DNA from: Bacteroidia bacterium
GTDB taxonomy: Bacteria > Bacteroidota > Bacteroidia > UBA7662
Length of the DNA: 64,000 nt
NCBI GenBank assembly: GCA_046291695.1
Contig: JBKBSO010000010.1
Span: 40,319-104,318, forward strand
Reading direction: 5' to 3'
Every line of letters starts with the position of its first letter. Position 1 is the first letter of the stretch. Of the stretch, positions 4,220-60,523 are shown in pieces. The position numbers were made by a program, and so were the translations under genes. The notes under the pieces are model-generated. The model did not search any database. It saw nothing but the letters and a program-made list of their open reading frames with translations, and was not told the origin of the DNA.

Positions 4220-4484
4220 GTACGTGATTTATGTGCTTTTGCTGGGTAGCGTTTTTGTTGGTGTAGCCCGCCATCTCATGTCCGGCGGTGCCTGTCTCCC
4301 TTAATTCTAGACCGCTGGTTAAGTTAGAAAAAATGTATAATTTAAACTATTGGTGGATTAAAAATGACTCAGAGAAATTTTAATGCCAGGTTCAAGACTT
4401 CGTTGGTGCCTGTTAAGCCTCCTTGGATCGAGGAGTTTTGTTACACACGAGCTGCTTTAATCAGCATTGCCGACCAATTAAAAA

Positions 4485-4507
4485 GGCATCCCGCGGGATG
4501 CCTTTTT
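4485..4507. terminator. Bidirectional hairpin terminator
   Basis: AAAAA-GGCATCCCGCGGGATGCC-TTTTT is a perfect 8-bp stem with an A-run on one side and a T-run on the other. It sits just 3' of the minus-strand small ORF 4527..4724. Confidence 0.55.
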
Positions 4508-4526
4508 AATTTTTGGAGCTATTGAT

Positions 4527-4724
4527 TTATTCGGTGGCTGCCGGTGCTTGCTGTGGAAGCGCGCGCTCGAAGCGGGCTTTATCGCGGTCGGCTTGGTCAA
4601 ACTTTTCTTGCTGTTGTTTGGCAGCGGCATCGGCTGCATTTTTTTTGCTATTGCAGCTGCTTATGCCCAGCAGGGCTACGAGTGCCAGGCTGAGCAGCAT
4701 GAGGGGGGCATATCTTTTCATCAT
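4527..4724 (-). CDS. Small secreted lipoprotein, low-complexity and Ala/Gln/Lys-rich
   Basis: Signal peptide with lipobox MMKRYAPLMLLSLALVALLGISSC. A terminator lies downstream. No homology could be assigned. Confidence 0.35.
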   Translation of the reverse strand: MMKRYAPLMLLSLALVALLGISSCNSKKNAADAAAKQQQEKFDQADRDKARFERALPQQAPAATE

Positions 4725-4787
4725 CGTGAGGTTTTAGCGCTTATGGTCAATTTTCTTGCCAAAAAAGCCTGATTCCTAAATCAGTGC

Positions 4788-4964
4788 TTATTGGGTTTCG
4801 GTTTGTGTACTCGGAATGAGGGTTGCCGGCCTTCCGGTTGGAGGCGTGTTGTCGTTGGTATCTTCCACTTCAGCCGCCTGTGTGGGGGGTGTAGCCGTTT
4901 TGCAAGCTTGTGTACCCAGTGCGAGTAGCAGGAGCAACAAGTAAAGTTTTATTTTCATATCCAT
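4788..4964 (-). CDS. Small secreted lipoprotein. Only the C-terminal 59 codons of the 137-aa ORF are used, starting at MDMKIKLY.
   Basis: Signal peptide LYLLLLLLALGTQAC. The upstream 79 codons of the called ORF overlap the ABM-domain gene in another frame. Confidence 0.3.
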   Translation of the reverse strand: MDMKIKLYLLLLLLALGTQACKTATPPTQAAEVEDTNDNTPPTGRPATLIPSTQTETQ

Positions 4965-5014
4965 TGACTTATGCTGCAAGATACAGTTTGTACGGGAGTC
5001 GGCCAATGGCTTGT

Positions 5015-5302
5015 TTATTTGAGGCAATAGCGTTGTTCGGTGCTCCAGGCTTCGGCAGGTTTGGCAAAAAGCTTTTTGGTGGCAGGCCACACCTCCTGAA
5101 AAAGGGCCGAATGACGGTAATTTTCTAGGTCCTGTGCTTTTTCCCAATGGCTGTAGGTAAAATAGGTATGCCCGTCTTTGAGTAATTGCAGCTCGGTGCA
5201 ACCCGGGAAATTCCTGATTTGCTGATGGTATTTTGCAAAGAGGGCCTCAAATACAGGCACTTCTTCGGGTTTAAAGCTCATTTTAACTAATCGTACAATC
5301 AT
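5015..5302 (-). CDS. ABM-domain (antibiotic biosynthesis monooxygenase-like) small protein
   Basis: 95 aa with the ferredoxin-like ABM pattern (VKPE...F...IRNFPGC..L). ATGA overlap with the upstream gene. Confidence 0.55.
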   Translation of the reverse strand: MIVRLVKMSFKPEEVPVFEALFAKYHQQIRNFPGCTELQLLKDGHTYFTYSHWEKAQDLENYRHSALFQEVWPATKKLFAKPAEAWSTEQRYCLK

Positions 5303-6096
5303 GTTTTTTCAATAAATATGGGGTCATCAACCCGTAAGCCCAGCAAGCCCGAGGCATTGCCACCCCTGATGCTGATTTGCAATAAGTTGTTGTGTCCAAA
5401 AAAACAGGCAATTTCGCCCGGCCCCACCTCTTCGTAACTGTTTACAAGCTGCTCTACCCGGTTTTCGTGCTGGTATTTTTTCTTCAGGTGTATGATAAAC
5501 CCATTGTTGCCTTTGGTCAGCCGCCTGAAAGTTTGCCTGTCGATATTGGTAATCACATTTTCGTAAGCATCTACATGGATAACCCTTCCCTGTAAATTAT
5601 CGCCAGTGATGGCAGGGAGTAGGGGGGTAAGCTGGTTGTAGTTGACATGCACTTCGCCCAATACCTGTGCGGCATTTTCGCCCTGCAAAATGGGTTGCAA
5701 GGCCGGAAGCACATCAATCAACAAGCTAAAAGCATGGGGTTTGGGCCTACCCGATGCCGGGATGATGTAAGGCGAGAGTAAAGCATTTTCGGTAATTAAG
5801 CTGCAAATGCCGTTGTCGGGCATGATGAAATGATGCTCGTTGAAGCTGAAATAGATGAACTCCGAACTGTAGTGGCTGATGGATGCAACATCGAGCAAGT
5901 GCAAACTGTGGTCCGGAAAAAAATGATATGCATTTTTTAAAACGTATGCTGCCTGCTGCAGGTTATATTTGCTAATATTGTGCGCGATATCCACCAGCTG
6001 AATACCCGGCTGCTGACGCATTAAATGCCCCTTTACCGCAGCAACATAAGGGTCGCTGAGGCCATAATCGGTGGTGAGGGTGATGCAATTTATCAC
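5299..6096 (-). CDS. S-adenosyl-L-methionine hydroxide adenosyltransferase family protein (DUF62, SAM hydrolase / halogenase-like fold)
   Basis: N-terminus ITLTTDYGLSDPYVAAVKGHL is typical of this family. GTG start. Confidence 0.65.
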   Translation of the reverse strand: MINCITLTTDYGLSDPYVAAVKGHLMRQQPGIQLVDIAHNISKYNLQQAAYVLKNAYHFFPDHSLHLLDVASISHYSSEFIYFSFNEHHFIMPDNGICSLITENALLSPYIIPASGRPKPHAFSLLIDVLPALQPILQGENAAQVLGEVHVNYNQLTPLLPAITGDNLQGRVIHVDAYENVITNIDRQTFRRLTKGNNGFIIHLKKKYQHENRVEQLVNSYEEVGPGEIACFFGHNNLLQISIRGGNASGLLGLRVDDPIFIEKT

Positions 6097-8058: not shown

Positions 8059-8065
8059 GGGTGCT

Positions 8066-8170
8066 CTTGGAGCTCGCTGGGGAGTGCTCGCTGGAGCTCG
8101 CTGGAGAACGTTCGCTTTGCTCACTGGGAAGTACTCGCTGGCGCTCGCTGGGGAACGTTCGCTGGGTTAA
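8066..8170. repeat. GC-rich short tandem repeat block of '..CTCGCTGG' units, locus 1 of 5
   Basis: Tandem 10-14 nt units each ending in CTCGCTGG, directly after the purC stop. The same family occurs at 30906, 32596, 35845 and 52861. Confidence 0.6.
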
Positions 8171-13800: not shown

Positions 13801-15819
13801 GCGCTCGATTTGCAATTCGAAGGTTTCCGTTTGTCGAATATTTCGGCCTTGCTCAATGCCGATTCGGTACCCTTGCGTGGTCGCTTGGAGGGCGAGGTGC
13901 AATTTGAGCATATGTTCAGCAACCCGGCTGCACAGGCCAGGTTGGCCATTACGCGCTTACGATTTGGCGAAGAATATCTGGGGAATATGCGCATTACTGC
14001 CACCAACCCAGCTGCCAACCGTTACGACTTTAGTATGGGACTGGCCGATGGAGCTATCCGCATGCGGCTCGAAGGGAATTACGAAGCAATAGCGGGCGAA
14101 CAACTGTTGAATCTTCAACTGCAGCTCGATACCCTGCAGTTAAGCATGCTTACCGCTTTCAGCAACAATCAGTTCAGCAATCCGCAGGGTTTCGTAAGTG
14201 CCCGTTTCGATATCAGTGGAAGTCTTGCCGCACCACAATACACCGGAAGCATGCGATTCCGCAATGCTGCCCTCACGGTAAACAAGCTCAACAATCGCTT
14301 TAGTTTGCCCGATGAACGTATTCGGATTGATAATGCGGGTATGGTGATTGAGCAATTTGAACTGCGCGACCCGCATGGGCACCGGTTGTTTGTATCGGGT
14401 ACCATCAAAACGCCAGAATTATTGCAGCCCGAGCTGGACTTGCGGCTGCGAGCCAACAATTTCCAGCTCATTGATGCCACGGCTAAAAACAACCCCATGT
14501 TTTATGGAAAGGCCAGCGTAACTACAGAAGCGCGTTTGCAGGGGAGTTTTAGCCGACCGATTATTGAAATGAAAGCCAGTTTGAACAAGGGAAGTAAGTT
14601 GTGGTTTGTGGTGCCCGAATCGCAAGCCGGCTTGGTGGAGCGCGAGGGGTTGGTATTGTTTACCGATATGCGTACTGCCTATTGGGACAGCCTTTTTGTT
14701 GGGCAGCAGCAGTTGCAAGACATCACCGGGATTACCTTGATGGCCGTTTTTCAGGTAGATCCGGAAACGGAGCTCACAGTAATTGTGGATGAGCGTTCGG
14801 GAGATAAGTTGCAGGTATCGGGCCGGGCCGATTTGCGCTATGAGCTTTTTCCCAATGGCCGCATGACTCTTTCGGGCGTGTATGAGGTAAACCGTGGGGC
14901 GTATGACCTGAGTTTATACGATGTGGTGCAGCGAAAATTCGAAATTAGCCAGGGCAGTACCATCAGCTGGCGGGGCGATGTGCTTGATGCGGCCCTTGAT
15001 TTGCGTGCCCGCTACCGGGTAAACACAAGCGCCATCGACCTGCTGAGTGAGCAATTGAGTGGGGTTGATGCCAGCACCCTGAGCCGTTATCGGCAGGAGT
15101 TGCCCTTTGATGTGTACACCAACATCCGTGGAGAGCTACTTAAACCACAGGTAAGCTTTTCGCTCGATATGCCCGAAAACCAGCGCGGAGTGCTCGACGG
15201 TAATGTGTATGCCCGGGTGCAACAGCTCAACCAGCAAGAAAGTGAACTGAACAAGCAGGTTTTTTCGCTTTTGGTGCTCAACCGCTTTCTGCCCGCAGGC
15301 GCAGGCTCACAGGTTGGGGCAAGTGCCACAACCCTGGCCCGTTCGAGCGCCAGCCAAGTTTTAAGCGGTCAGCTCAACAGTTTGAGTGCCCGCTACATCA
15401 AAGCAGTAGATGTTGACATGAACCTGAGTAGCTTTACCGATTACCAAGGGGGGCAGGCACAAGACCGCACCGTGGCCAATGTAAATGTGCGCAAAAATTT
15501 GCTCGACGACCGATTGGTAGTACAATTGGGTTCTCAGGTAGATTTGGAAGGGAATCAGCGTCGACAGCAAAATGCCAGTGACATCATTGGCGACGTAACC
15601 CTTGAATACCTGCTCACCGAATCGGGTGATTACCGCATCAGTGCATTTCGCCGGAACCAGTTTGAAGGCCTCATCGAAGGGCAGTTGATTGTAACAGGCA
15701 CCTCGCTGGTGTTTAGCCGTGAATTTAATCGTTTTTCGGAAGCTTTTAAGCGCCGGGCTGCCAGGCCAGAGCACGAAAAAAAGGCCCCACAACCCAAAAC
15801 TGAGGAGGTGGAGCCATGA
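10876..15819 (+). CDS. tamB: Translocation/assembly module TamB-like (AsmA/DUF490 family) giant periplasm-spanning protein
   Basis: 1647 aa with an N-terminal membrane anchor and long repetitive beta-rich sequence. Overlaps the downstream Omp85-family gene by 4 bp. Confidence 0.6.
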   Translation: MHPYLRTSLRLIAGCFVGLLSLIVLLVLLLRVAGVQQWAAEKGALWLSDKTDTHISIQKLRFSYRGDLLVEGLLIQFPEGDTLLYSQSLRTQCKWWELPAISVPFVDWEGLQANIQQDAAGNWNFARLLAPFVAKETDSLPAEAKKKKTSETPELRIGPIHLSQWELRYGSATDSLQMQLALGNLELWADSLLPDQNFYGLQQFALHNSRFELLSSGSPAAADDDSSQNVLPRIRIHRLDLGGLDLRYTDLQNSYGLVLGRLALELPELDLDQHKIRVDSFLLADSRLDMLLAEADSSGARAPQADNQAFVWPDWQADIYQVHLLNTHLLFQQGASAPQQANLQSLASRLHYRPGMASMALQLTNLREGGGLQINHLGSQLSLSNEALQLKSLQLRSGRSDFEASGRLNYPNIDALLSADSSLSLQLACKSTGIYPIDFARFMGDMAEDARLKPLLPVPLSFELITEGDMRELKLDSLQIDWGDGTRLAASGKLVQLLDSARMQFNLPRVQLSSVQADLNLLYADTSLAWPTHFLLDAGVRGSRSSLSSGMKLHLPGGTAFIMAAVEDTGRAHFTLDADLQGQAWAELLKQPDFGNVELGFRLEGSGRDLANLEMKLAGELEFIEYLEERYEMLRFEGELKQQQLRFAADMNQMPLAFDLKMTARLDSLVPEAELKLRLIRASLKRLGLRDDELVLRMQLDAGYRAQGASREAELLLTDGLFQTATSRYPVDSLRAWLQSDSLHFVAGLRSELAGGEFRANAGIDELVLAIRQQLRNYLPLAEIDSLERKDIQLAGELKLYENRLLTDLLVPELRRLDSSSLQLQFDQAAGTLRIDLQSPAIDYGDVSVRGMYIDLNSKPDSLEMTAGFARLQQADRIDIHPTRLQAEMLGDTVLFGLRMQREDASTLYALDAFINRIADTTHIQLLPNPLVLQGVNWQIPKENYIRFAPGYLRTENFSLQHQEELLALSQDAPDALDLQFEGFRLSNISALLNADSVPLRGRLEGEVQFEHMFSNPAAQARLAITRLRFGEEYLGNMRITATNPAANRYDFSMGLADGAIRMRLEGNYEAIAGEQLLNLQLQLDTLQLSMLTAFSNNQFSNPQGFVSARFDISGSLAAPQYTGSMRFRNAALTVNKLNNRFSLPDERIRIDNAGMVIEQFELRDPHGHRLFVSGTIKTPELLQPELDLRLRANNFQLIDATAKNNPMFYGKASVTTEARLQGSFSRPIIEMKASLNKGSKLWFVVPESQAGLVEREGLVLFTDMRTAYWDSLFVGQQQLQDITGITLMAVFQVDPETELTVIVDERSGDKLQVSGRADLRYELFPNGRMTLSGVYEVNRGAYDLSLYDVVQRKFEISQGSTISWRGDVLDAALDLRARYRVNTSAIDLLSEQLSGVDASTLSRYRQELPFDVYTNIRGELLKPQVSFSLDMPENQRGVLDGNVYARVQQLNQQESELNKQVFSLLVLNRFLPAGAGSQVGASATTLARSSASQVLSGQLNSLSARYIKAVDVDMNLSSFTDYQGGQAQDRTVANVNVRKNLLDDRLVVQLGSQVDLEGNQRRQQNASDIIGDVTLEYLLTESGDYRISAFRRNQFEGLIEGQLIVTGTSLVFSREFNRFSEAFKRRAARPEHEKKAPQPKTEEVEP

Positions 15820-18092
15820 GAAAATACTATTGGGCGGCTTTGCTCCTCGTATTGAGTGCTTGTGGTACCCTACGCAAATTGCCCGAAGGCGAGCAGTTGT
15901 ACCGTGGCACCGAAATTGTGCTGCACAGCACCGAGCCCATCGAAAACCGATCGGCGCTCCAGGCAGAACTGGCCAATGTGGTTTTCCCCAAACCCAATGG
16001 CCGTTTGTTTTGGCAGTACCCCGGGATTTATATTCACGAGCGTGCCAAAGCCGAAAAGGGTGCACGACTGTCGAAAAGGCTGAACAAACGCTATGGAGAA
16101 GCTCCGGTTTACCTGAGTCAGCTCAATAATGAAAAAATTGCGCAGCTCATGCAAAACCGGCTCGAAAATCGCGGCTATTTTGACCACGAAATTCGGCTTG
16201 TTAAACAAGGAAAAGGCCGCAAGGGCATACTTCGGGCCGAAATTCAGCTCGATCCGCCCTACCGTTTGCACCAGTATGCCTGGTATGGACCGCAAGACAG
16301 CCTTGCGCGGCTCCTGCTGCCTCAATTGCCCAAAGGCAAGCTACAGCCGGGTACACGCTACGATTTAGATGCCTTGCGAACGGAACGCGAGCGACTCGAT
16401 ACTTGGCTCAAAAACCGGGGATATTATGCCTTTTCGGCCGATTATTTCATTTTTAGGGCCGATACCAACCTCAACAATCGACAATACAACCTTTATTTGG
16501 GCATCAAAGCTGCGAGTCCGCCCGAAGCCTTGTTGCCCTACCGCATCAATAGTGTTTCGGTATTCCCGAATTACCAGGTTCAGGCCGACAGCGGGCAAAG
16601 CAGCAAGCTCGATACGGTAGTGAACCGTGGCATACAGTTTATAGAAGGCGTAGACAAGACCTTCTTGCCACATCACTTACAGCGCTATATTTTGTTGCAG
16701 CCGGGCCAATTGTATGAGCGCAATCGCGAGCTCATGACCAGCAACCGCATCAGTAACTTGGGCAACTTTCGGTTTGTAACCCTGCGTTTTTATCCGACCG
16801 ATTCGATAGTAGGTACTGATCATGCGGTGCAAACGCTTCAGGCCAATTTGTATCTTTCGCCCGCTAATAAGCGCCGTTTGCGATACGAAACGCAGTTTTT
16901 ATCCAAATCGAACAACTTTGTGGGGCCGGCCCTGAAAGCGGGTTACCAGAATCGGAATTTGTTCAAAGGAGGGGAGTTGCTTAACATTGACATGAACCTG
17001 GGCTTTGAAACGCAGTTTGCAGGAGGGCGGCAAACCGGTTTAAATTCCTACGAGGCTGGCATTCGAAGCGAATTGGTATTTCCCCGGGTGTTGGCGCCGG
17101 TTTCGCTGGGCGAAAATGTAAGCCATGGCATTGCCCGTACCCGCATGGTGGTGGGCGGAAGTTTGCTCAATCGGATGCAATTTTACCAGCTCCGTGCCTT
17201 TCAAACTTCTTTTGGTTACACCTGGAATACCAACCGTTTTGTGACGCACGATTTACAGCCGTTTTCGGTTAGTTTTACTGGTTTGGCGCGCACGTCCGAC
17301 GCTTTTGAAATCATATTGGCCAATAATCCTTTCTTGCGACAAAGTTTCGATCAGCGATTTATTGCCGGTATGGTATACCAGTTTACTTTTAGCGAGCTCA
17401 CTGAAAGCAAGCCCCACCGCTGGGTAGCGATTGCCTCGCTCGATATGTCGGGGAATTTATTGGGAGCTTTGAGTGGGAGTGGCCGTTTGTTTGGCGAGCC
17501 CCTGGCGCAGTATGTACGTATCGATGCCGATTTGCGCCACCATTGGGTGCTCAGCAAGGAACGTAGGCTGGTGTTTAGGGCCTTTGCAGGGGGGGGGTAT
17601 AGCTATGGCAATAGCCAAACTTTGCCTTACATTAAGCAGTATTTTTCAGGTGGCCCCAATAGTGTACGGGCCTTTAACATCCGCTCATTGGGACCGGGCA
17701 ATTACCGTCCGCTCGATTTTGATGCGGCTTCATTTTTTGATCAAGCCGGCGACATCAAACTAGAAGCCAACGTGGAATACCGCTTTCCGCTCTTGCCTTA
17801 CCTGAAAGGGGCTTGGTTTTTGGATGCAGGAAATATTTGGCTGCAACGCTTTAACCCGGCTCTGGGTGGCGGACAGTTTACGGCCAATTGGATGCAGGAA
17901 TTGGGTGTGGGTGCCGGCTTTGGCTTGCGCATCGATGCCGACATCCTGGTGTTTCGTTTTGATTTGGCGAGCCCTTTACGTAAGCCCTGGCTTCCTGCCG
18001 GCAGCCGATGGCTGGGCGATTTTGAACCGGGCAGCAGAAACTGGCGTCGCGAGAACCTGAACTTGGTATTTGCTATTGGGTATCCGTTCTGA
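15816..18092 (+). CDS. tamA: Omp85/BamA-TamA family outer-membrane protein (surface antigen D15 barrel)
   Basis: Lipoprotein signal LVLSACG, 758 aa. The C-terminal beta-barrel ends ...FAIGYPF with an aromatic last residue. Coupled to tamB. Confidence 0.65.
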   Translation: MRKYYWAALLLVLSACGTLRKLPEGEQLYRGTEIVLHSTEPIENRSALQAELANVVFPKPNGRLFWQYPGIYIHERAKAEKGARLSKRLNKRYGEAPVYLSQLNNEKIAQLMQNRLENRGYFDHEIRLVKQGKGRKGILRAEIQLDPPYRLHQYAWYGPQDSLARLLLPQLPKGKLQPGTRYDLDALRTERERLDTWLKNRGYYAFSADYFIFRADTNLNNRQYNLYLGIKAASPPEALLPYRINSVSVFPNYQVQADSGQSSKLDTVVNRGIQFIEGVDKTFLPHHLQRYILLQPGQLYERNRELMTSNRISNLGNFRFVTLRFYPTDSIVGTDHAVQTLQANLYLSPANKRRLRYETQFLSKSNNFVGPALKAGYQNRNLFKGGELLNIDMNLGFETQFAGGRQTGLNSYEAGIRSELVFPRVLAPVSLGENVSHGIARTRMVVGGSLLNRMQFYQLRAFQTSFGYTWNTNRFVTHDLQPFSVSFTGLARTSDAFEIILANNPFLRQSFDQRFIAGMVYQFTFSELTESKPHRWVAIASLDMSGNLLGALSGSGRLFGEPLAQYVRIDADLRHHWVLSKERRLVFRAFAGGGYSYGNSQTLPYIKQYFSGGPNSVRAFNIRSLGPGNYRPLDFDAASFFDQAGDIKLEANVEYRFPLLPYLKGAWFLDAGNIWLQRFNPALGGGQFTANWMQELGVGAGFGLRIDADILVFRFDLASPLRKPWLPAGSRWLGDFEPGSRNWRRENLNLVFAIGYPF

Positions 18093-18159
18093 TGAGGCGA
18101 AGCGAGGGGAAGCGCGGCAGTGCAGGTTTGCAACTACGTGCGCTTTAACAACATCAACG

Positions 18160-18362
18160 CGGTCCAAATGCCGTATTGCATGGATGCCGTTCATATGCCC
18201 AAGGCTTCTACTCCGCACCAGCCAGCTGTGGTCTGCGGTCCGCGGTCCAAATGCCGTATTGCATCGAAGCCGTTCATATGTAAAAAGCTTCTACTCCGCA
18301 CATGCCAGCCGCGGTCTGCGGTCTAATCGCCGTATTGCATGGATGTCGTTCATGTGTAAAAA
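18160..18362. repeat. Tandem repeat array 1, about 2.5 copies of the 76-83 bp unit
   Basis: The unit CGCCGTATTGCATGGATGCCGTTCATATG plus a variable half is the same family as the 19846..20455 array. Confidence 0.7.
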
Positions 18363-18443
18363 GCTTAAAACCTAGAACGGCTGTTTGTTACTGCAAGCTC
18401 ACGGCCATTATGACCACCTTGCTCATCCTTTTCACGTAAAGAT

Positions 18444-18685
18444 ATTTCGCCCTTTCAGGGCTTCGATTTTCGCGACTTGCACTTTACCGGGGCTTCACCC
18501 TGGCCTGTTAGCTGCCGCCCCTTCAGGGCTTTTAATGTGTTCGTTTTTGTGATGAAGCACGCCTCCTAAACAGCGCTGATGGCGCGTAATACATCAGGGC
18601 AGGGTGTAGCCTTGTCAGCATGGCCCTATGAATTTTGAGCGCTGAAGGTGCGGAATATACTCCCGTAAGCATTGGGCAATGCGAA
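18444..18685. repeat. Diverged ~230-bp direct repeat, copy A, immediately 3' of vapC
   Basis: About 80% identical to 19482..19705. Shared strings include CGATTTTCG, CACCCTGGCCTGTTAG and GAATTTTGAGCGCTGAAGGTGCG.AATATACTCCCG.AAGC.TTGGG. Confidence 0.6.
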
Positions 18686-18791
18686 ACAAGCTTAATAAGA
18701 TGTGTGATGGCTTGCGACGAATGATCGTTGAACAACACCTAGTAATCAACTAAAGTAAGCATAAACACCGCGATGCGACCAGTAGCCTTAG

Positions 18792-19196
18792 CTACTTTTT
18801 CCAATTTTCAACCTTTAACCCATTAATAGATTCGTAATGTCGCTCGTTATTGGTAATTAGCGTTAGTTCGTTTTCAATCGCAATTCCTGCTATCAAAATG
18901 TCTGATGTTCCAATGGTTATTCCTTTTTGTCTAAGGTCTGCATAAAGGTCACCAGATATTTTTGCTGATTCCTCTGAAATGTGAATGATTGTGTTATTGG
19001 CTACAAATTCTTCAAATTCTTTTATCTGCTTTTCAGCCTTTTTGAATTTGAGTCCACCAAGGACTTCATAATAAGTGATTATGGATATGTTGATGACATC
19101 GAATTCTCTCAAATAGTCGTTGAACCTGGCAACAACTTTTGAGTCTCCTTTGAAGTAGGAGGATAAAATATCCGTATCAACCAAAGATTCAGGCAC
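18792..19196 (-). CDS. vapC: PIN-domain toxin VapC
   Basis: 134 aa. Conserved acidic residues in the DTDIL...E...D...TND pattern expected for a PIN domain. Confidence 0.8.
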   Translation of the reverse strand: MPESLVDTDILSSYFKGDSKVVARFNDYLREFDVINISIITYYEVLGGLKFKKAEKQIKEFEEFVANNTIIHISEESAKISGDLYADLRQKGITIGTSDILIAGIAIENELTLITNNERHYESINGLKVENWKK

Positions 19197-19198
19197 GC

Positions 19199-19429
19199 TC
19201 AGCTGATTTGTCTATCGTTAGTCCTGTTGTCGTGAAGGCTTTTCGTCATTTCATGGAAAAAACTTTCATCAAGGTCTTTCCATGTCCCCGCAAGCTTTAG
19301 CGTCTTATCCTTAGATTTAATTTGGTCTTCAATTTTACTCAATAACATATTGATTTCAGTCAATTTGTCTGCTGACAGTTGCTGAAGTTTCCTAACCAAG
19401 CTGTTCCTAAGTCTGTTCTTCACATTCAT
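19199..19429 (-). CDS. Putative cognate antitoxin (VapB-like) of the PIN toxin
   Basis: 76 aa and 2 bp upstream of vapC on the same strand. The size and tight arrangement are typical of antitoxins. No family-specific motif was recognised. Confidence 0.5.
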   Translation of the reverse strand: MNVKNRLRNSLVRKLQQLSADKLTEINMLLSKIEDQIKSKDKTLKLAGTWKDLDESFFHEMTKSLHDNRTNDRQIS

Positions 19430-19481
19430 ATCTCAAAACTACAAAATTACTGTTACTAATTCCTTGTTCGGTGATGGGTTT

Positions 19482-19705
19482 CGATTTTCGTGGTCTTGTA
19501 TAATCAAGGGCTGCACCCTGGCCTGTTAGATGACGCCCTTTCAAGGCTTAAAGTGAGTTCGTTTTTATGATGTAGTACGGCTCCAAAACAGCGTTGAAGG
19601 CGCGTAATACAATAAGGCAGGGTGAAGCCCTGTCGTAATATGGCCCCACGAATTTTGAGCGCTGAAGGTGCGAAATATACTCCCGCAAGCTTTGGGTGAT
19701 CCGGA
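19482..19705. repeat. Diverged ~230-bp direct repeat, copy B, immediately 5' of the vapBC pair
   Basis: Aligns with 18444..18685. It is followed by a 22-nt GAAGCGCGGCAGTGCRGGTTTG block that also occurs at 18100..18125. Confidence 0.6.
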
Positions 19706-19845
19706 AGGAAGCGCGGCAGTGCGGGTTTGAAGCCTTGTACGTTTGAACAGCGCTAACGCGGTACAAGACCGCAGTCCGCAGTCCGCAGCTGGACGGTGCA
19801 TGCTTGACACGAAAAACGCTTGAACAGCTTTTACGCAGTTCAAAT

Positions 19846-20455
19846 AATGTATTGCATCATAGCCATTCATATGTAAAAAGCTTCTACTCCGCACATGCCA
19901 GCCGCGGTCTGCGGTCTAATCGCCGTATTGCATGGATGTCGTTCATATGCCCAAAGCTTCAAATCCGCACAAACCAGCCGTGGTCTGCGGTCCGCGGTCT
20001 AATCGCCGTATTGCATGGATGCCGTTCATATGCCCAAGGCTTCAAATCCGCACCAGCCAGCCGTGGTCTGCGGTCCGCGGTCCAAATGACGTATTGCATG
20101 GATGTCGTTCATATGGAAAAAGCTTCAAATCCGCACAAACCAGCCGTGGTCTGCGGTCTAATCGCCGTATTGCATGGATGCCGTTTATATGGAAAAAGCT
20201 TCAAATCCGCACAAACCAGCCGTGGTCTGCGGTCCGCGAATCGCCGTATTGCATGGATGCCGTTCATATGGAAAAAGCTTCAAATCCGCACAAACCAGCC
20301 GTGGTCTGCGGTCCGCGGTCCAAATGCCGTATTGCATCGAAGCCGTTCATATGGAAAAAGCTTCTACTCCGCACCAGCCAGCTGCGGTCTGCGGTCTAAT
20401 CGCCGTATTGCATGGATGCCGTTCATATGCCCAAGGCTTCAAACCCGCACCGGCT
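19846..20455. repeat. Tandem repeat array 2, about 8 copies of the 76-83 bp unit (minisatellite)
   Basis: Measured periods are 83, 83, 76, 79, 83 and 76 bp. The length difference comes from a 7-bp GCGGTCC indel. Each unit has a conserved half containing CATATG and a variable half present in two or three sequence variants. Confidence 0.8.
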
Positions 20456-20597
20456 AGCATCGCCCCGCGTTCCGTGCTGTTACGGATGCCGGCGGCGACT
20501 GTGGAAAATTCGGGCAAAAACAGCCGGCTTAACATTGCTTTTAAACCTTGTATTTGGGTGATAATTATTACTTTTACCCCCCTCAACATTTAATATT

Positions 20598-23156
20598 ATG
20601 CAAGCTAAGAACAACGATCCGGTTTGGAAGCGCGTTTTGGTGCGATCGGAAGTTCCCAAACAATTAGAACCCCTGCGAACTTTAGCGCAGAATTTATGGT
20701 GGTCGTGGAATTATCGCGCCATCGAACTTTTTGAATCTATAGATCCACTCATGTGGGAACGCTCGCAGCATAACCCCGTTTCGCTCCTCGAAAGCCTCGA
20801 TTTCGATCAATACCAGGCACTCATCAACAACAAGGGTTTTATGGCCAATATGCAGGCTGTACTCAAGGAGTTTGAAGCGTATATGAATACTCCAAAAGTT
20901 GCCAAAACCGCCAAAGTGGCCTATTTCTGTATGGAATACGGGCTGCATTCGGTAATCAAACTCTACTCTGGTGGTTTGGGGGTTTTGGCCGGCGATTACC
21001 TCAAAGAGGCTTCTGACTGTAACTCCGACATGGTAGCCATCGGTTTGCTCTACCGTTATGGTTACTTCAAACAAAGCCTTTCGCCCCATGGGGAGCAGGT
21101 GGCCAATTACAAGCCACAAAAATTCAGCTACCTGCCGGTACTTCCGGTGAAAGACAAGGATGGCAACTGGGTTAAAATCAACATTCAGCTCCCCGGCCGT
21201 ACTTTGCACGCCAAAATCTGGAAAATTCAGGTTGGTCGCGTGCCTTTGTACCTGCTCGATACCGATTTGGAAGAAAACCAGGAAGGCGACCGCAGCATCT
21301 CGCATCAGCTGTATGGTGGCGATTGGGAGAACCGACTGAAACAGGAAATCCTGCTTGGTATAGGTGGTGTAAAAGCCCTCGATGCTTTGGGTATTCAACC
21401 TGAGATTTGCCATATGAATGAAGGCCACGCGGCCTTCACCGGCCTGGAGCGGGTGAAAAAGCTGGTGCAGGAACAAGGCCTCAGCTTCCACCAGGCGGTA
21501 GAAGTGGTGAAATCATCGTCGCTCTTTACCACGCACACACCGGTACCGGCCGGACACGATGCCTTCAACGAAGATTTGCTCAAAACCTACCTCTACAACT
21601 ATTCCGAAATCTTCCAAATCAGCTGGGACAAGTTTATGGCCCTCGGCCGTATTCATGAGTTTGCACACGAGGAGCTTTTTTCGATGAGCCACCTGGCAGC
21701 TCGTTTGAGCCAAGAAATTAACGGGGTAAGCCGCATCCACGGGCGGGTGTCGCGCGAGATGCTACAGCCACTCTGGCCGGGCTTCGAGGAAGATGAACTG
21801 CATGTGGATTATGTAACCAACGGGGTGCATTATTACACCTGGACCAGCATCGCCTTCCAGAAGTTGTATGAAAAGCATTTCGGCAAAAATTTCCACCTCG
21901 ACCAAAGCAATACCAAACATTGGGAAAAAATCCACAAAGTACCCGATGATGAAATTTGGGAAACCCGATTGAGCCTCAAACGTCGACTCATTGAGTCGGT
22001 TACCAAAAAGCTGCAGCGCGATTTAACCCTGCGGCAGGAGAGTCCCGGTAAGATTCTAAATGTAGTTAACAGCCTCAATGAAAATGCCCTGATCATTGGC
22101 TTTGCCCGACGTTTTGCGACCTATAAGCGTGCACATTTGCTTTTCTCGAACCTCGACCGTTTAAGTAAAATGGTGAATAATGCCGATCGCCCTGTGCAAT
22201 TTATTTTTGCAGGGAAAGCGCATCCTGCCGACCAAGGGGGTCAAGCACTTATCAAGCGCATCATCGAGGTAGCGCAGATGCCTGAATTTGCCGGTAAAAT
22301 TTTCTTCCTCGAAAATTATGATATGGCCCTGGCGCGCCGCTTGGTGCATGGGGTTGACGTATGGTTGAATACGCCTACCCGTCCACTTGAAGCTTCAGGA
22401 ACCTCAGGCATGAAGGCCACCATGAATGGCGTGCTCAATTTGAGCGTGCTCGATGGCTGGTGGGCCGAAGGATATATTCCTGAAGGAGGCTGGGCCTTGC
22501 CCGAAGAGCAAACCTATGTGAACAAAGACTTCCAGGATGAGCTCGATGCCGAAACCCTGTACAACATTATCGAAACCCAGGTGGTGCCCGACTATTTTAG
22601 CCGCAACGAAAGCGGGATGTCGCCGGCATGGATGAGCCGCATTCGCCATACCATCGCTGGCATAGCGCCGCATTTCACCATGAAACGCATGCTCGACGAA
22701 TATTACAGCAAGTTCTACAATAAGCTGCAGGGTCGTGCAAACCTGATTTCATCCAAGTCGTATGCCAATGCCAAAGCCCTGGCCGACTGGAAAGCCAAGG
22801 TGTACTTTGGTTGGGATGGCATTCAGGTAATGGCCATCGACACTTTCGATACCTTTAACAATGCGCTACAGTTGGGTGAAAATTTCAATGGCAAAATCAC
22901 CTTGGAACTCAATCAACTAAGCAAAGACGACATTTCGCTGGAGGTGATTGTTGCTGAAAAGCAAGGTATTGAAGAGAAGCATGTGATTGTTCACCGCGAA
23001 GAAGTAAAAGCCAGCAAATCGTCGGGGAACCGGGTGATGTATGAACTCAATCTACCCATGAACCGCTCGGGGGTGTTCGATTATGGCTTCCGTATTACGC
23101 CGAAAAACAAATTGCTGGCCTACCGCCACGATTTTAACCTGGTGCGCTGGATTTAA
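20598..23156 (+). CDS. glgP: Alpha-glucan (glycogen/maltodextrin) phosphorylase, GT35 family with N-terminal DUF3417
   Basis: 852 aa. YFCMEYGL...GGLGVLAGD near the N-terminus and the pyridoxal-phosphate site GTSGMKATMNG. Confidence 0.85.
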   Translation: MQAKNNDPVWKRVLVRSEVPKQLEPLRTLAQNLWWSWNYRAIELFESIDPLMWERSQHNPVSLLESLDFDQYQALINNKGFMANMQAVLKEFEAYMNTPKVAKTAKVAYFCMEYGLHSVIKLYSGGLGVLAGDYLKEASDCNSDMVAIGLLYRYGYFKQSLSPHGEQVANYKPQKFSYLPVLPVKDKDGNWVKINIQLPGRTLHAKIWKIQVGRVPLYLLDTDLEENQEGDRSISHQLYGGDWENRLKQEILLGIGGVKALDALGIQPEICHMNEGHAAFTGLERVKKLVQEQGLSFHQAVEVVKSSSLFTTHTPVPAGHDAFNEDLLKTYLYNYSEIFQISWDKFMALGRIHEFAHEELFSMSHLAARLSQEINGVSRIHGRVSREMLQPLWPGFEEDELHVDYVTNGVHYYTWTSIAFQKLYEKHFGKNFHLDQSNTKHWEKIHKVPDDEIWETRLSLKRRLIESVTKKLQRDLTLRQESPGKILNVVNSLNENALIIGFARRFATYKRAHLLFSNLDRLSKMVNNADRPVQFIFAGKAHPADQGGQALIKRIIEVAQMPEFAGKIFFLENYDMALARRLVHGVDVWLNTPTRPLEASGTSGMKATMNGVLNLSVLDGWWAEGYIPEGGWALPEEQTYVNKDFQDELDAETLYNIIETQVVPDYFSRNESGMSPAWMSRIRHTIAGIAPHFTMKRMLDEYYSKFYNKLQGRANLISSKSYANAKALADWKAKVYFGWDGIQVMAIDTFDTFNNALQLGENFNGKITLELNQLSKDDISLEVIVAEKQGIEEKHVIVHREEVKASKSSGNRVMYELNLPMNRSGVFDYGFRITPKNKLLAYRHDFNLVRWI

Positions 23157-23411
23157 GCAGCGCCCAGGGCCTAAGTGGGATTCGAGGCGGGTGAGTCATT
23201 AAAGTGCTTTAATACAGCTCGTTGTGGCTTAACCGCAGAGGGGCTCTTTTTCCGTTGATCAGCAGTCACCTATCCGACTACTGAACTGCATAAACCAGCA
23301 TGGAATCAGTGCAGGCCCCAGCGACAGCCAGGCGCGAGGCAACGGAGCCTTTTGCCTCATAAGCTTCACTTATTCGTCGGAAGCCGCAGAGGCCGATTCT
23401 CTGCGCCCTCC

Positions 23412-23506
23412 GCTGGAAATGCGAAGCATGCCCCAGCAAAAGGCTCCGTTATCTCGCGGCCAGCCGAAGTTGCCAGTAGCACTTACAAGAAAGCTGTTCA
23501 AATGCG
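23412..23506 (+). promoter_or_regulatory. Conserved ~95-nt bipartite upstream element, copy 1. Box A is GCTGGAAATGCGAAGCAT..GCAAAAGGCTCCG and box B is TGCCAGTAGCACTTACAAGAAAGC.GTTCAA.
   Basis: Similar elements occur at 40555..40650 on the plus strand and 43468..43560 on the minus strand. This copy lies about 200 bp upstream of the 23706 gene and in its orientation. Confidence 0.4.
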
Positions 23507-30906: not shown

Positions 30907-30955
30907 TACTCGCTTCGCTCGTGGGGAGCGCTCGCTGGCGCTCGCGGGGTTCGAT
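30906..30955. repeat. GC-rich CTCGCTGG-family repeat block, locus 2
   Basis: TACTCGCTTCGCTCGTGGGGAGCGCTCGCTGGCGCTCGCGGGG lies directly after the gpsA stop. Confidence 0.55.
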
Positions 30956-32595: not shown

Positions 32596-32690
32596 CCCCG
32601 TGCCCGCTCTGCCCCCAGCGAGCGAAGCGAGCGCTCCCCACGAGCGAAGCGAGTACTCCCCACGAGCAAAGCGAGTACTCCCTTCGAAAA
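32596..32690. repeat. GC-rich CTCGCTGG-family repeat block, locus 3, in inverted orientation
   Basis: CCAGCGAGCGAAGCGAGCGCTCCCCACGAGCGAAGCGAGTACTCCCCACGAGC... is the reverse complement of the locus 1 and locus 5 units. Confidence 0.55.
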
Positions 32691-33341: not shown

Positions 33342-35744
33342 ATGTATAAAAAGCTACTTACACTATTTCTGATGGCCGCCATGGGCAGTTTGCCTTTCGG
33401 TTCCCTGGCACAGAATATCCGAAACAACCCGAACTCGAACCATGGCAATAAGTTCGAACAGTTGGGTACCATTTTGCCCGACGCCAATACCTACCGAACC
33501 GCCTCTGGTGCTCCCGGGCATGCCTACTGGCAACAGCGCGCCGATTATGACATTGACGCCTTTTTAGATGAAGAGAAGCTGATTTTACATGGGAACGAGC
33601 GCATCACCTACCTCAACAATTCGCCGGATGCCCTGGATTACCTTTGGCTTCAACTCGATGAAAATCAGCATGATCCGGCGAATGAAGCCAATCATTTTAA
33701 TGAAAGTCGTTTGGGGCGCCGCCTGGGCACTCGCGATATTGACCGGTTAGACGTGTACAGCGAAATGGCTGGACATGGGGTAAAGATTGAATCAGTGACC
33801 GACGATAAGGGCAAAGCCTTGCCTTATGTAATCAACAACACCATGATGCGGGTTGACCTACCCAAAGCCCTTGCTCCGGGTAAAAAAATCAGCTTCCGCA
33901 TCCGTTGGCACTATCGTATTCCAGAGCGTTCGCGCATTGGTGGCCGGGGTGGTTATGAGAAGTTTGACGATGGCAATGCCGTATTTACCATTACCCAATG
34001 GTTTCCGCGCCTGTGTGTGTATAGCGATTATCAGGGCTGGAACAATAAACAGTTTACCGGCCGTGGTGAATTTGCCCTGCCTTTTGGAAATTACAAGGTA
34101 CGCATGAATGTGCCCGAAGATCACCTGATAGTGGCTACGGGGGAATGCCAAAATTATAGCAAGTTGCTTAGTAAAGATCAGTTGGCACGTTGGAAACAAG
34201 CCCAAAATGCTACTGAACCCGTGGAAGTAGTAACCTTAGCTGAAGCCATTGCACGCGAAAATAGCCCTAAAAAGGGCCGTAAACAATGGGAGTATGTGGC
34301 GCACAATGTGCGCGACTTCGCCTGGGGTAGCTCTCGTAAATTTGTGTGGGATGCCATGCCAGTAACCATCGAAGGCAAAAAAATCATGGCCATGAGCGCA
34401 TATCCTAAAGAGGCCTATGGTCTTTATCGCAAGTACAGCACCAAAGTTGTAGCCCATACTTTGCGGGTGTACAGCAAATTCACCATTCCCTATCCCTATC
34501 CGGTGGCCATTAGCGTGGAGGCCAGCAATGGCATGGAATACCCCATGATCTGCTTCAATTATGGCCGCACAAACGAAGATGGCACTTACAGCGAACAAAC
34601 CAAGTACGGCATGATTGGGGTCATCATCCACGAAGTAGGGCATAATTTCTTCCCCATGATCGTGAACAGCGATGAGCGTAACTGGAGCTGGATGGACGAA
34701 GGCCTGAATACCTTCGTGCAGTTTTTGGCCGAGCAGGAATTCGACAACAATTACCCTTCACGCCGAGGGCCGGCCCATAAAATCGTCGATTATATGAAGC
34801 TCGAGCCGGATGAGCTCGAACCCATCATGACCAATAGCGAAAACATCATACAGTTTGGCCCTAATGCCTATGCCAAACCGGCAACTGCACTCAATATTTT
34901 GAGGGAAACGGTTATGGGGCGCGAGCTGTTCGACTTCGCCTTTAAAACCTATGCCACCCGCTGGGCCTTTAAACATCCGAGCCCCGCCGATTTTTTTCGT
35001 ACCATGGAAGATGCTTCCGGGGTCGACCTCGATTGGTTTTGGCGTGGTTGGTTTTACGATATCGAGCCGGTCGACATCAGCCTTGATAGTGTGCTTGTGC
35101 TCCGGCCTGAACGTGGTCCGGAAATTGTGTTTTCGCCCAGTCGCCGTCGGGCCAATCGCAGCCCAGCGAATGAGGAGGAGTTTATACACATCAGCCGTTA
35201 CCGCAATAAGCAGGAGGGAATACCCTTTTTGGTGGATGTAGATACCAGCTTACGCGATTTTTATTACCATTACACGGCAGCGCAAAGACGCGAAGATGCC
35301 GAGGAAGCAGCATTGAGTCCGGTTAACCCATTTAGTGGCTGGGATACGCTTACTAAGGAGGAGTTTTTTTTCGGTGGCTACCAGCAGAAGTATGTGTATG
35401 AGCTGCATTTGAGCAATAAAGGGGGGCTGGTAATGCCCGTAATTTTACGATGGGAATATGAAGATGGCAGTACGGAAGAAGAACGGATAAGTGCGTATAT
35501 CTGGCGGAAGAATGAACATCAAATCGTAAAAACCTTCGTGAAGGCCAAGCCGGTAAAGCGTATTTTACTCGATCCCTGGCGCGAAACCGCCGACATTGAC
35601 GAAAGCAACAACTTTTGGCCGCGCGATGGCGAAACAGCCATGCCCACACCTTTGCAATTGTACAAAGCACGCTCCAACGGTCGCAACGCAGCTGCCGGCA
35701 GCGAAAATCCCATGCAAAAACGAAGGGTGAAGCGGGAAGAATGA
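33342..35744 (+). CDS. M1-family zinc metallopeptidase (aminopeptidase N-like), secreted. The start is moved to 33342 (MYKKLLTLFL...).
   Basis: Signal peptide present. HEVGH followed 19 residues later by E (WMDEG) fits the gluzincin HExxH-x18-E signature. Confidence 0.75.
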   Translation: MYKKLLTLFLMAAMGSLPFGSLAQNIRNNPNSNHGNKFEQLGTILPDANTYRTASGAPGHAYWQQRADYDIDAFLDEEKLILHGNERITYLNNSPDALDYLWLQLDENQHDPANEANHFNESRLGRRLGTRDIDRLDVYSEMAGHGVKIESVTDDKGKALPYVINNTMMRVDLPKALAPGKKISFRIRWHYRIPERSRIGGRGGYEKFDDGNAVFTITQWFPRLCVYSDYQGWNNKQFTGRGEFALPFGNYKVRMNVPEDHLIVATGECQNYSKLLSKDQLARWKQAQNATEPVEVVTLAEAIARENSPKKGRKQWEYVAHNVRDFAWGSSRKFVWDAMPVTIEGKKIMAMSAYPKEAYGLYRKYSTKVVAHTLRVYSKFTIPYPYPVAISVEASNGMEYPMICFNYGRTNEDGTYSEQTKYGMIGVIIHEVGHNFFPMIVNSDERNWSWMDEGLNTFVQFLAEQEFDNNYPSRRGPAHKIVDYMKLEPDELEPIMTNSENIIQFGPNAYAKPATALNILRETVMGRELFDFAFKTYATRWAFKHPSPADFFRTMEDASGVDLDWFWRGWFYDIEPVDISLDSVLVLRPERGPEIVFSPSRRRANRSPANEEEFIHISRYRNKQEGIPFLVDVDTSLRDFYYHYTAAQRREDAEEAALSPVNPFSGWDTLTKEEFFFGGYQQKYVYELHLSNKGGLVMPVILRWEYEDGSTEEERISAYIWRKNEHQIVKTFVKAKPVKRILLDPWRETADIDESNNFWPRDGETAMPTPLQLYKARSNGRNAAAGSENPMQKRRVKREE

Positions 35745-35844
35745 AGCGGGAAGAGGGAAGAGGGAAGTGAGAGGCCGAAGGAGAAGGATGAAGCGTGAAG
35801 TCAGAAGTTCATCTAAAACCGCAATGAATTGCGGTTCCCACCCT

Positions 35845-35900
35845 CCGAAGGACCCAGCGCGAAGCGCGCTCCCCACTCGCGAAGCGAGTCTCCCCAGTGA
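35845..35900. repeat. GC-rich CTCGCTGG-family repeat block, locus 4, in inverted orientation
   Basis: CCAGCGCGAAGCGCGCTCCCCACTCGCGAAGCGAGTCTCCCCAGTGAGCGCCAGCGAAC lies after the M1 peptidase stop. Confidence 0.5.
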
Positions 35901-35978
35901 GCGCCAGCGAACCCGAAACCAAAACTTCAAACCCTCACAATACTGACTTAATATTCCGGTAAAACCCGTAACTGTACT

Positions 35979-40435: not shown

Positions 40436-40554
40436 GCTTTTTAATTTGGCGCAAAGGTAGGGTTTTTTAATGAGACCGCTGAACCTCGCGGCAGCTGTCT
40501 CTTTTGCGCTTTGCTCCATGGCCTTTGGCCAAAGGCCTTTGCTCAGCGTACGCT

Positions 40555-60498: not shown

Positions 60499-60523
60499 GA
60501 GTGAAAATACGTTTACAAATCAT

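Follow-up and report, generated by a model that had tools for sequence, protein, structure and literature searches.

A decayed vapBC cassette between two palindromic repeats in a resident minisatellite locus of a Bacteroidia bacterium

Introduction

How does a 2.5-kb island built almost entirely from repeats, with a toxin-antitoxin pair inside it, come to lie between tamL and glgP in a Bacteroidia bacterium (GTDB lineage UBA7662; assembly GCA_046291695.1, contig JBKBSO010000010.1)? The interval in question comprises 2505 bp, positions 18093–20597 of the 64-kb stretch of DNA that was analyzed here (hereafter, the window). A first-pass annotation, made from the sequence alone, described a vapC gene and a vapB-like gene bracketed by two diverged direct repeats (R copies A and B; here R_A and R_B), and around them two arrays of one 76–83 bp minisatellite together with two copies of a 22-nt block. 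It left a choice between the footprint of a cassette-type mobile unit, such as a toxin-antitoxin cassette borne by a miniature inverted-repeat transposable element (MITE), and a recombination hotspot.

Three unrelated components are stacked in the island: a minisatellite that is resident and hypervariable, a host palindrome in two copies, and a toxin-antitoxin cassette that has become a fossil. The explanation that we favor overall, and hold to be fairly probable, is that a vapBC cassette, acquired and since fossilized, lies with two host-type R copies in the resident minisatellite, and that the present layout arose by recombination within the arrays. The evidence for the cassette is presented first, followed by that for the minisatellite and the R element, and then by the origin of the layout.

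Results

Composition of the interval

The repeat inventory of the first-pass annotation proved accurate, with every element at or near the position given for it. The 22-nt block has exact matches at 18109 and 19708 only, and a 29-nt core of the array unit occurs ten times, confined to 18169–18356 and 19921–20429; in shuffled sequences, no occurrence of either is expected. The array sizes first estimated, about 2.5 and 8 units, agree with counts made by means of an anchor sequence (GTATTGCAT), which marks eight units in array 2 and, in array 1, two units followed by a truncated third; unit lengths are 76–83 nt. R_A and R_B, described as roughly 80% identical, measure 81%.

Base composition differs markedly among the parts of the interval. 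The segment that is homologous to cassettes in other genomes (18761–19478) has a GC content of 36.9%, and the 74-nt tail next to it 39%, compared to 53–54% in the arrays, 48–52% in R and 49.6% in the window as a whole. The foreign DNA is the ∼790 bp between the R copies, while R and the arrays appear native. No integrase or transposase was found in the window, as first reported; this statement holds for open reading frames (ORFs) of at least 150 aa, which were scanned against Pfam or are annotated in the matching contigs L003 and L043.

The vapBC genes

The two genes of the toxin-antitoxin pair lie on the minus strand, as first described, and have the arrangement of a type II VapBC module, with a small ORF ahead of a PIN-domain toxin. 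The PIN domain of the 134-aa VapC is well supported (PF01850; E = 3.3e-12, 47.5 bits against a cut-off of 23.6). The NCBIfam models of VapC also match this protein, with E-values down to 1e-23, at scores below their equivalog cut-offs (84 versus 140 bits). The 76-aa ORF upstream ends 2 nt before the start of vapC. In contrast to the antitoxins of typical VapBC modules, its product matches no known antitoxin or DNA-binding family: the Pfam and NCBIfam searches assigned it to no family, the best match being PRTRC_E with E = 0.021, below the cut-off. The 76-aa and 134-aa ORFs are inherited together, as the pair is conserved in those fetched loci that include both stretches.

Both genes are under purifying selection. 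The ratios of non-synonymous to synonymous divergence (dN/dS), calculated against five homologues, are 0.03–0.09 for vapC and 0.07–0.24 for the vapB-like gene. Synonymous divergence (dS) from the nearest vapBC homologue is ∼0.4–0.5, and the window pair is thus a long-separated member of its family. Since both genes are intact as well as constrained, the pair is predicted to be, most likely, a working addiction or stress module. A conserved leader precedes vapB (AGTAATTTTGTA..TTTGAG) and fits TAnnTTTG, which we take to be the Bacteroidota −7 promoter consensus; this reading of the leader is our own. To judge from this leader, the cassette probably drives its own expression.

A family of vapBC cassettes in unrelated contexts

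The vapBC family is a mobile cassette that was horizontally acquired at this locus. Our searches found 608 homologues of VapC, which include at least 119 clusters, besides the window's own, that are 79–92% identical; named sources among the clusters listed are Cytophagales, Cyclobacteriaceae and metagenome-assembled genomes (MAGs) of Bacteroidia. One and the same VapC protein adjoins, in separate contexts, an aldehyde dehydrogenase, a cation-efflux gene and an IS110 transposase, and other copies of the pair lie beside a sulfatase, a helicase, or a DUF2281/PemK toxin-antitoxin pair. The mobile cassette of the first-pass annotation is therefore real insofar as the vapBC pair occurs in many unrelated contexts, but it is neither the R-bracketed nor the array-bracketed structure. 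No other vapBC context contains R, and neither do 348 kb of fetched loci; the arrays are resident, being present in a cassette-free relative (L043, see below); and a MITE-borne cassette finds no support in the ends of the family elsewhere, which are attC-like AAC/GTT boxes and not MITEs.

Several of the fetched loci deserve a brief description. In L045 (8989–10925; also in L046–L054), a Gp49/HTH toxin-antitoxin pair, vapBC and a 122-aa ORF lie between menB-like and menE-like genes of a men operon; the attC-like site of L045 is degenerate, with GTTGTGA present and CTGCAAC as the 3′ box. Unrelated cassettes form short arrays in L029 (1–4936), L031 (1–1735), L022 (1–4700), L019 (1–3500) and L038 (600–1600), and encode a GIY-YIG-like ORF, an HXXEE protein, a cation-efflux protein, DUF2281/PemK and vapBC. 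A supposed 284-bp indel after vapC in L019 is a run of N and was discarded. In L023, an IS110 element (1212–2510; DEDD_Tnp_IS110 and Transposase_20) starts 6 nt after the CCACAAC box, and the target resumes at 2511. One subgroup of IS110 elements targets attC sites, which makes this arrangement a lead and not a test.

The attC-like site of the family

The attC sites of integrons are defined by R and L boxes, unpaired spacers, conserved AAC and GTT triplets, and a variable central part of 20–100 nt (Cury et al. 2016, PMC4889954). To judge by its sequence and predicted pairing, the element of the vapBC family has the same architecture. Alignment of the flanks gave cassette ends that are sharp and conserved: the upstream end reads ...AAAC|GTTGTGGCCCATAGCC... 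and the downstream end ...GGCTACGGGCCACAAC|ACCGTGTTTATTTAATTGCGGGG..., with CTTCTAAACCGTTGAAAGGGCATTG as the reconstructed target of the solitary insertion in L028. The cassette unit starts with G|TTGTGG and ends with CCACAAC, and then a structured site of ∼175 nt follows, which recurs between different ORFs, always in one orientation.

Ten of these sites were aligned. The AAC and GTT triplets, which form the three inner pairs, are invariant in all ten. The 18-bp helix between L″ and L′ has changed on both sides at eight of its 18 pairs, while a single mismatch is kept in every site, and the spacers measure 4 nt and 5–6 nt. In the alignment, 86% of the cells are paired, compared to 39–45% with slid partners, and none of 500 shuffles reached the covariation score. 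The R box is less constant in its outer four pairs, which break in about half of the sites and change with the next cassette, as would be expected if the crossover falls at G|TT and TTGTGG belongs to the cassette that follows.

The two ends of a cassette match one another in a cassette-specific manner. In five of six distinct cassettes (six of seven entries), 14–15 of 16 nt at the 5′ and 3′ ends pair, with a mismatch kept at position 11; in the sixth cassette, 10 of 16 pair as aligned. On average, the own ends pair at 11.1 of 13 positions, compared to 6.2 of 13 with the ends of other cassettes. The complementarity of the own ends indicates that they would be the two halves of one site in a circular form.

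Decayed ends of the window copy

As a mobile element, the copy in the window is a fossil, a decayed member of this family. A profile of the attC-like elements, searched with nhmmer, found no such element in the window, the only match being E = 9 at 18760–18789. The 3′ box reads GGTCGCATC (CGCATC) where the family has GGCCACAAC. The 5′ GTTGTGG box is missing altogether: homology to the other cassettes begins exactly after its 7 nt, the end of R_B (ATCGAAA) stands in its place, and the junction between the cassette and R_B falls within a shared GGG/CCC. Only 7 of 16 nt pair between its own ends, and the copy has neither the boxes nor the structured body that define an attC site. The 74-nt tail at 18687–18760 is probably the decayed body of such a site. 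With its 5′ box lost and its 3′ box mutated, the cassette, as read from its ends, can probably no longer move by site-specific recombination.

A resident, fast-evolving minisatellite

Tandem Repeats Finder (TRF) detects a period of 83 with 2.0 copies at 18158–18323 and of 83 with 6.8 copies at 19904–20450; the periods present are 83 and 76, and the length of a unit is set by the number of internal 7-nt sub-repeats GGTCYGC. The 83-bp unit also exists in an inverted and diverged form, of which the 22-nt block is the beginning (inverted repeats I1, I3, I4 and I5), so that each array consists of one or more inverted units followed by forward units. In total, the window contains 2.5 and 8 forward units, and ∼0.5 and 1.5 inverted ones. 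Head-to-tail units of 76 and 83 bp whose number and variant order differ between close genomes are a hallmark of bacterial minisatellites, or variable-number tandem repeats (VNTRs), and by this criterion the array belongs among them. It differs from them in its mirror layout, in which a fixed block adjoining the tamL stop codon leads into inverted units that face the forward ones.

A close relative is represented by L043, a 13.6-kb metagenome contig from the Joint Genome Institute (JGI), which encodes a TamL that is 97% identical in amino acid sequence to that of the window. At the nucleotide level, identity is 97.0% in tamL, 96.6% in glgP and 97.5% in the ∼150 nt upstream of glgP. The tamL–glgP interval of L043 is only 736 bp long, compared to 2505 bp in the window, and contains the block, ∼3 inverted units, the junction and ∼4 forward units, with neither R nor vapBC. 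Because the array is kept in this cassette-free relative, the minisatellite is resident DNA, and the segment consisting of R_A, vapBC and R_B is a presence/absence polymorphism, as revealed by the kind of comparison with relatives that the first-pass annotation had suggested. A second contig, L044, whose TamL is 88% identical in amino acid sequence, also has the block region, up to the contig end. The nearest relatives in GTDB are much more distant, with TamL identities of only 68% and 42%. In L004 (TamL 68% identical), the segment from the island through glgP to CMD is missing and tamL adjoins a 991-aa gene; this locus was considered as an empty site and rejected as too distant, and it provides synteny information only.

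Identity of the window to L043 is 75–78% in the block regions and ∼72–89% in the units, compared to 93–97% in unique intergenic DNA. The array is far more diverged than its flanks, which indicates a fast turnover. The hotspot alternative of the first-pass annotation is borne out by these comparisons, with array units that differ by 15–25% between genomes against 3–7% in the unique flanks, and by a perfect 81-bp repeat that brackets the insert (see below).

Searches for array homologues outside this lineage in PLSDB, INPHARED and IMG/VR, and with a six-frame protein query, found none; patterns for the unit, for R and for the cassette ends were likewise absent from IMG/VR. Other interpretations of the array were considered and rejected. 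The ORFs within it are spurious as coding repeats, since the periods are not multiples of 3 and the six-frame query had no homologue. A chimera of 1038 aa, joined from six-frame translations of array and R segments, had no match among 5.8 billion proteins, a weak negative given that such ORFs are rarely called. Structured RNA is not indicated by the folds of the units (z = −0.4 to +1.5) or of the inverted-to-forward junction (z = −1.4). A clustered regularly interspaced short palindromic repeat (CRISPR) locus is not a suitable description, as whole 76/83-bp units repeat with no unique spacers, the Pfam scans contain no Cas protein and Rfam gives no hit. A plasmid or phage origin was rejected, with no blastn match in PLSDB or INPHARED.

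The R element

R is an imperfect palindrome, and its 23-nt and 16-nt cores are found only in R_A and R_B within the 64 kb. The plus strands fold with energies of −95.4 kcal/mol (z = −2.5) for R_A and −94.2 kcal/mol (z = −3.2) for R_B, and the minus strands fold more weakly (−83 and −74 kcal/mol). R_A contains four stem-loops of the form GCNC-TGAWR-GNGC, two per arm and in mirror orientation; this motif has five matches in the window, all of them within R, compared to 0.19 expected. Differences between R_A and R_B in the predicted stems are one-sided in ten cases and compensatory in one, with none of 55 pairs broken, a weak result given that the structure was fitted to the same two sequences.

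R was not found in the other vapBC contexts, in the 348 kb of fetched loci or in the 13.6 kb of L043. A 20-mer scan of 241 million metagenome records found eight loci, none of them full-length; at least two of the eight lie in apparent coding sequence and look like chance matches. R as a part of the cassette, or as kin of the attC-like element, was rejected on finding no similarity by blastn and nhmmer. It was also rejected as a known RNA family: a permissive Rfam scan of the island gave only a sub-threshold match to Acido-Lenti-1 (23.6 versus 37 bits). The last ∼20 nt of the R copies (18665–18690 and 19685–19706), GC(A/T)TTGGG(C/T)(A/G)AT(G/C)CG, resemble the 3′ end of tamL at 18070–18092 (GCTATTGGGTATCCG), which could be chance or a trace of R arriving before block 2.

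What kind of element R is bears directly on the origin of the island. One reading, possible rather than probable and compatible with the favored explanation, is that R is like the doublets of repetitive extragenic palindromic sequences (REPs) that form hairpins (REPINs) or like bacterial interspersed mosaic elements (BIMEs), was spread by a REP-associated tyrosine transposase (RAYT), and received the cassette at a tandem pair. R shares with these families the short GC-rich stem-loops in inverted pairs that form a long hairpin, and the confinement of the stem-loop motif to R is in agreement with this reading. The right arm of R_B is 72% identical over 89 nt to an element in the metagenome contig L007, which lies ∼400 nt from a 175-aa IS200-like Y1 transposase (PF01797, E = 2e-5), among other palindromic repeats, and similar hairpin clusters occur in L009, L012 and L013. 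However, the link to a RAYT comes from a single unrelated contig that was found through a 20-mer, and this resemblance is a lead only. REPINs are ∼100 nt long with two hairpins, whereas R has ∼230 nt and four hairpins; and REP families are usually dense, whereas R has two copies in 64 kb and none in the 13.6 kb of L043. We hold the working label REPIN/BIME-like loosely, because there is no RAYT or other Y1 transposase in the window. The surroundings of the L007 transposase (4250–5322), which is of the RAYT type, include several ∼100-nt palindrome families, hairpins with CTGAAGG loops that are similar to the arm of R, and an adjacent gene with a HEPN domain.

The island might instead be a composite mobile element, in which the R copies act as MITE-like ends for a transposase supplied in trans and carried vapBC into the minisatellite. 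MITE-flanked composites such as integron mobilization units and TIME-COMP also have a small accessory module between two palindromic non-coding copies. The direct orientation of the R copies on both sides of vapBC, the long palindrome with inverted ends that R shares with many MITEs, and the lack of the module in a relative with ∼97% identical flanks are all consistent with this proposal. Most of the evidence points the other way, and we consider it improbable. No second instance of the composite is at hand, with R missing from the other cassette contexts and the fetched loci, and no full-length R came from the metagenome scan. The GC content of R is host-type, and that of the cassette is not. 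The two R copies are 19% diverged, and R_B has been cut short where it meets the cassette. The target-site duplications that the first-pass annotation suggested looking for are not in evidence, as the junctions that were read show no short duplication, and the window has no transposase. In addition, the Logan contig L001 (run SRR31360864), which equals window positions 18324–19785 exactly and has one end inside the first copy of the 81-bp repeat, runs unbroken through both R copies; from the 31-mers that near-identical copies would share, we infer that there are none elsewhere in the sample.

R could also be regarded as this lineage's own cassette recombination site, an analogue of attC. Its position, directly before the 5′ end of the cassette and again after the 3′ end, is that of an attC site; it is a long imperfect hairpin with one strand folding better than the other (−95 versus −83 and −94 versus −74 kcal/mol); and the differences between its copies leave all 55 stem pairs intact. 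These pair counts, however, come from the structure fitted to the same two copies. R has no AAC...GTT box pair in attC orientation, the inner GTT and AAC being in the opposite order, and nhmmer detects no similarity to the attC-like element of the family. The decayed site of the cassette itself lies between vapC and R_A, and the junction of the cassette, without TTGTGG, is not that of a canonical crossover. This analogue is accordingly quite unlikely.

Origin of the present layout

The favored explanation, a resident minisatellite holding two host-type R copies and an acquired, fossil cassette, must also account for the arrangement of the arrays. A perfect 81-bp direct repeat with a period of 1593 bp brackets the spacer, R_A, the cassette, R_B, block 2 and the inverted units. 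Neighboring array units differ by 10–25%, and an exact match of 81 bp among them indicates recent recombination or gene conversion. The repeat points to homologous recombination between array units, and not to transposition, as the probable source of the layout. The R–vapBC–R module, with R copies that are 19% apart and boxes that have decayed, greatly predates the 3% divergence of the window from L043. The three full inverted units of L043, compared to a truncated one in array 1, indicate that more than one event separates the arrays.

A plausible sequence of events begins with a resident, fast-evolving minisatellite upstream of glgP, composed of the block, inverted units and forward 76/83-bp units. 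This strain would have gained or kept a ∼1.5-kb module of two R copies with the horizontally acquired vapBC between them, and homologous recombination between array units would have produced the layout now seen. The window may have recently received a pre-formed module by way of array homology, or L043 may have lost the module in the same way; the direction, gain or loss, and the mechanism of recombination are what we infer from the repeats. RecA-type exchange between the two 81-bp copies would lead to loss of the module or to its release in circular form, and recA is present in the window (46989–48020).

Certain observations weigh against parts of this account. The 81-bp identity may stem from gene conversion and not from integration, and the L043 array is not a simple deletion product of that in the window. 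No integron integrase or tyrosine recombinase is among the genes called within ±4–10 kb of the fetched contexts, and the term integron-like refers to the architecture of the site. The site itself is unusual for an attC, its central part having ∼110 nt, more than the 20–100 nt reported, and its basal stem extending 9 bp beyond the R box in a cassette-specific manner. Finally, the Logan contig is not a fully independent check of the assembly, as it and the MAG may go back to one set of reads.

An assembly misjoin is unlikely, since this contig crosses from R_A through the cassette and R_B to block 2, and the central join was thus reproduced by a second assembler. It is very improbable that the assembly fused two strain variants, or the chromosome and a small circle or an amplified unit, at the 81-bp repeat: the source is a MAG, the exact repeat offers two possible paths and a natural insert-free variant exists, but the Logan assembly has the same sequence from the array 1 side through block 2, a repeat of 81 bp can presumably be spanned by ordinary short reads and by the largest k-mers of an assembler, and the L043 array differs throughout and so is not an alternative path of the same graph.

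Table 1. Features of the tamL–glgP interval and its flanking genes, in window coordinates
Feature	Position	Strand	Description or evidence
tamL (first annotated as tamA), left flank	15816–18092	+	Omp85 and POTRA domains; lipo_TamL
GAGGCGAAGCGAGGGGAAGCG stretch right after the tamL stop, overlapping block 1	18094–18118		TRF; also in L043 and L044
Block 1 (22 nt at 18109–18130) and truncated inverted unit	18108–18167	+	Exact match; 77% to 19707–19766 (family D3); 78% to L043
Array 1, ∼2.5 forward units of 83/76 bp, last truncated	18158–18371	+	TRF, core, anchor
81-bp perfect direct repeat, copy 1	18273–18353	+	Exact match to copy 2
Unique spacer	18372–18440		Resembles no fetched locus; 18367–18440 has 45% GC
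R copy A (R_A)	∼18441–18686	+	∼220-nt imperfect palindrome, four stem-loops with TGAAG/CTTCA-type loops; GC 52%
Low-GC cassette tail	18687–18760	-	GC 39%
Cassette-family segment	18761–19478	-	86–88% nucleotide identity, blastn against L028–L042; GC 36.9%
vapC, PIN-domain toxin, 134 aa	18792–19196	-	Intact; PF01850
vapB-like antitoxin candidate, 76 aa	19199–19429	-	Intact; directly upstream of vapC in fetched loci covering that stretch
Cassette 5′ leader, AGTAAT TTTGTA..TTTGAG	19430–19478	-	Conserved across the cassette family
R copy B (R_B)	∼19476–19706	+	Abuts the cassette 5′ end; without ∼17 nt of the outer left arm of R_A
Block 2	19708–19729	+	Exact 22-nt match
∼1.5 inverted units and inverted-to-forward junction	19719–19843	-	Inverted repeats I1, I3, I5 and I7; collinear with L043 4446–4760 at ∼75–80%
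Array 2, 8 forward units of 76–83 bp	19845–20450	+	L043 from 4741 onward pairs collinearly with the window from 20167 onward (blastn)
81-bp perfect direct repeat, copy 2	19866–19946	+	Exact match to copy 1
Unique region 5′ of glgP	20451–20597	+	154/158 aligned positions the same as in L043
glgP (alpha-glucan phosphorylase), right flank	20598–23156	+	DUF3417 and Phosphorylase domains

Flanking genes and other repeats in the window

The gene on the left flank, first read as tamA, encodes TamL, the Bacteroidota lipoprotein form of TamA, with a score of 713 bits to the NCBIfam model lipo_TamL (NF052279) against a cut-off of 400. The N-terminus of the protein (...LSAC) resembles a lipobox.

Other repeats are scattered in the intergenic regions of the window. 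Arrays of a GCTCGCTGG(G/C)G-type motif, with periods of 10–47 and on both strands, lie at 8061–8165, 30930–30943, 32610–32682, 35722–35912 and 52872–53026; the GCTCGCTGG motif has 21 matches in the window, compared to 1.3 expected. The stretch at 18094–18118, next to block 1, appears by eye to be the reverse of this motif, although the motif search itself gave no match there. A ∼105-nt repeat with the palindrome GGAGCCTTTTGC...GCAAAAGGCTCC is present at 23387–23491, between glgP and CMD, and 17 kb away at 40530–40633 (77% identity); the former copy lies at the right edge of the segment that is missing from L004.

At gathering thresholds, a search of the whole window against Rfam found one tRNA only. 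The tRNA lies at 56423–56496, and within ∼200 nt follows a gene on the opposite strand with a Fic/DOC domain (56706–57785); this region could be the edge of another accessory insertion. The ∼2.6 kb at 60500–63120 are free of ORFs of at least 150 aa and of Rfam matches at these thresholds.

Relationship to integrons and implications

The homologous loci share many properties with integron cassettes, among whose known forms the toxin-antitoxin cassettes of sedentary chromosomal integrons are also close counterparts. A cassette comprises one or more ORFs and a site that is an imperfect palindrome with conserved AAC/GTT triplets. The site is organized as an R box, an unpaired spacer, an L box in which one mismatch is conserved, and a central part that varies, and the apparent crossover at G|TT means that the 5′ TTGTGG travels with the cassette. 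Cassettes share a single orientation, are solitary or grouped in short arrays, and often carry toxin-antitoxin pairs. Clusters of cassettes that lack an integrase (CALIN) and isolated cassettes (SALIN) have been described, along with the background of attC sites (PMC4889954, PMC9024848, bioRxiv 10.1101/2022.09.11.507474), and the homologous loci are in the same situation. They differ from integron cassettes in the dimensions of the site, as described above, and in the R′ box, which is GTTGTGG and not GTTRRRY. The hosts of the family are Cytophagales-type Bacteroidota, no IntI was seen near any copy, and the window copy falls outside the attC definition.

These comparisons permit a broader proposal, which is speculative and, in our estimate, somewhat unlikely as a whole. 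The family may represent an undescribed integron-like cassette system of Cytophagales-type Bacteroidota. It would have a site of ∼175 nt and a cassette-specific stem of 16 bp with a conserved mismatch, would reside as solitary cassettes or short integrase-less arrays inside ordinary operons, and would be served by a non-classical recombinase or by an IntI that has escaped surveys. The window would then show the end of such a cassette: its boxes lost, held between resident hairpin elements, and movable only as a 1.6-kb unit that loops out via minisatellite homology.

For the window locus, the difference between genomes whose flanking genes are ∼97% identical makes the tamL–glgP interval a natural marker of strain-level recombination. 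The cassette family, and not the locus in the window, is the more interesting lead. Among complete genomes of Bacteroidetes, IntegronFinder 2.0 found only In0 elements and one complete integron (in Salinibacter), and the family shows the logic of attC sites in a phylum whose complete genomes have hardly any reported integrons. If upheld, this finding would widen both the range of cassette-type gene capture and its structural limits, and would provide a set of sequences for tests of integrase specificity.

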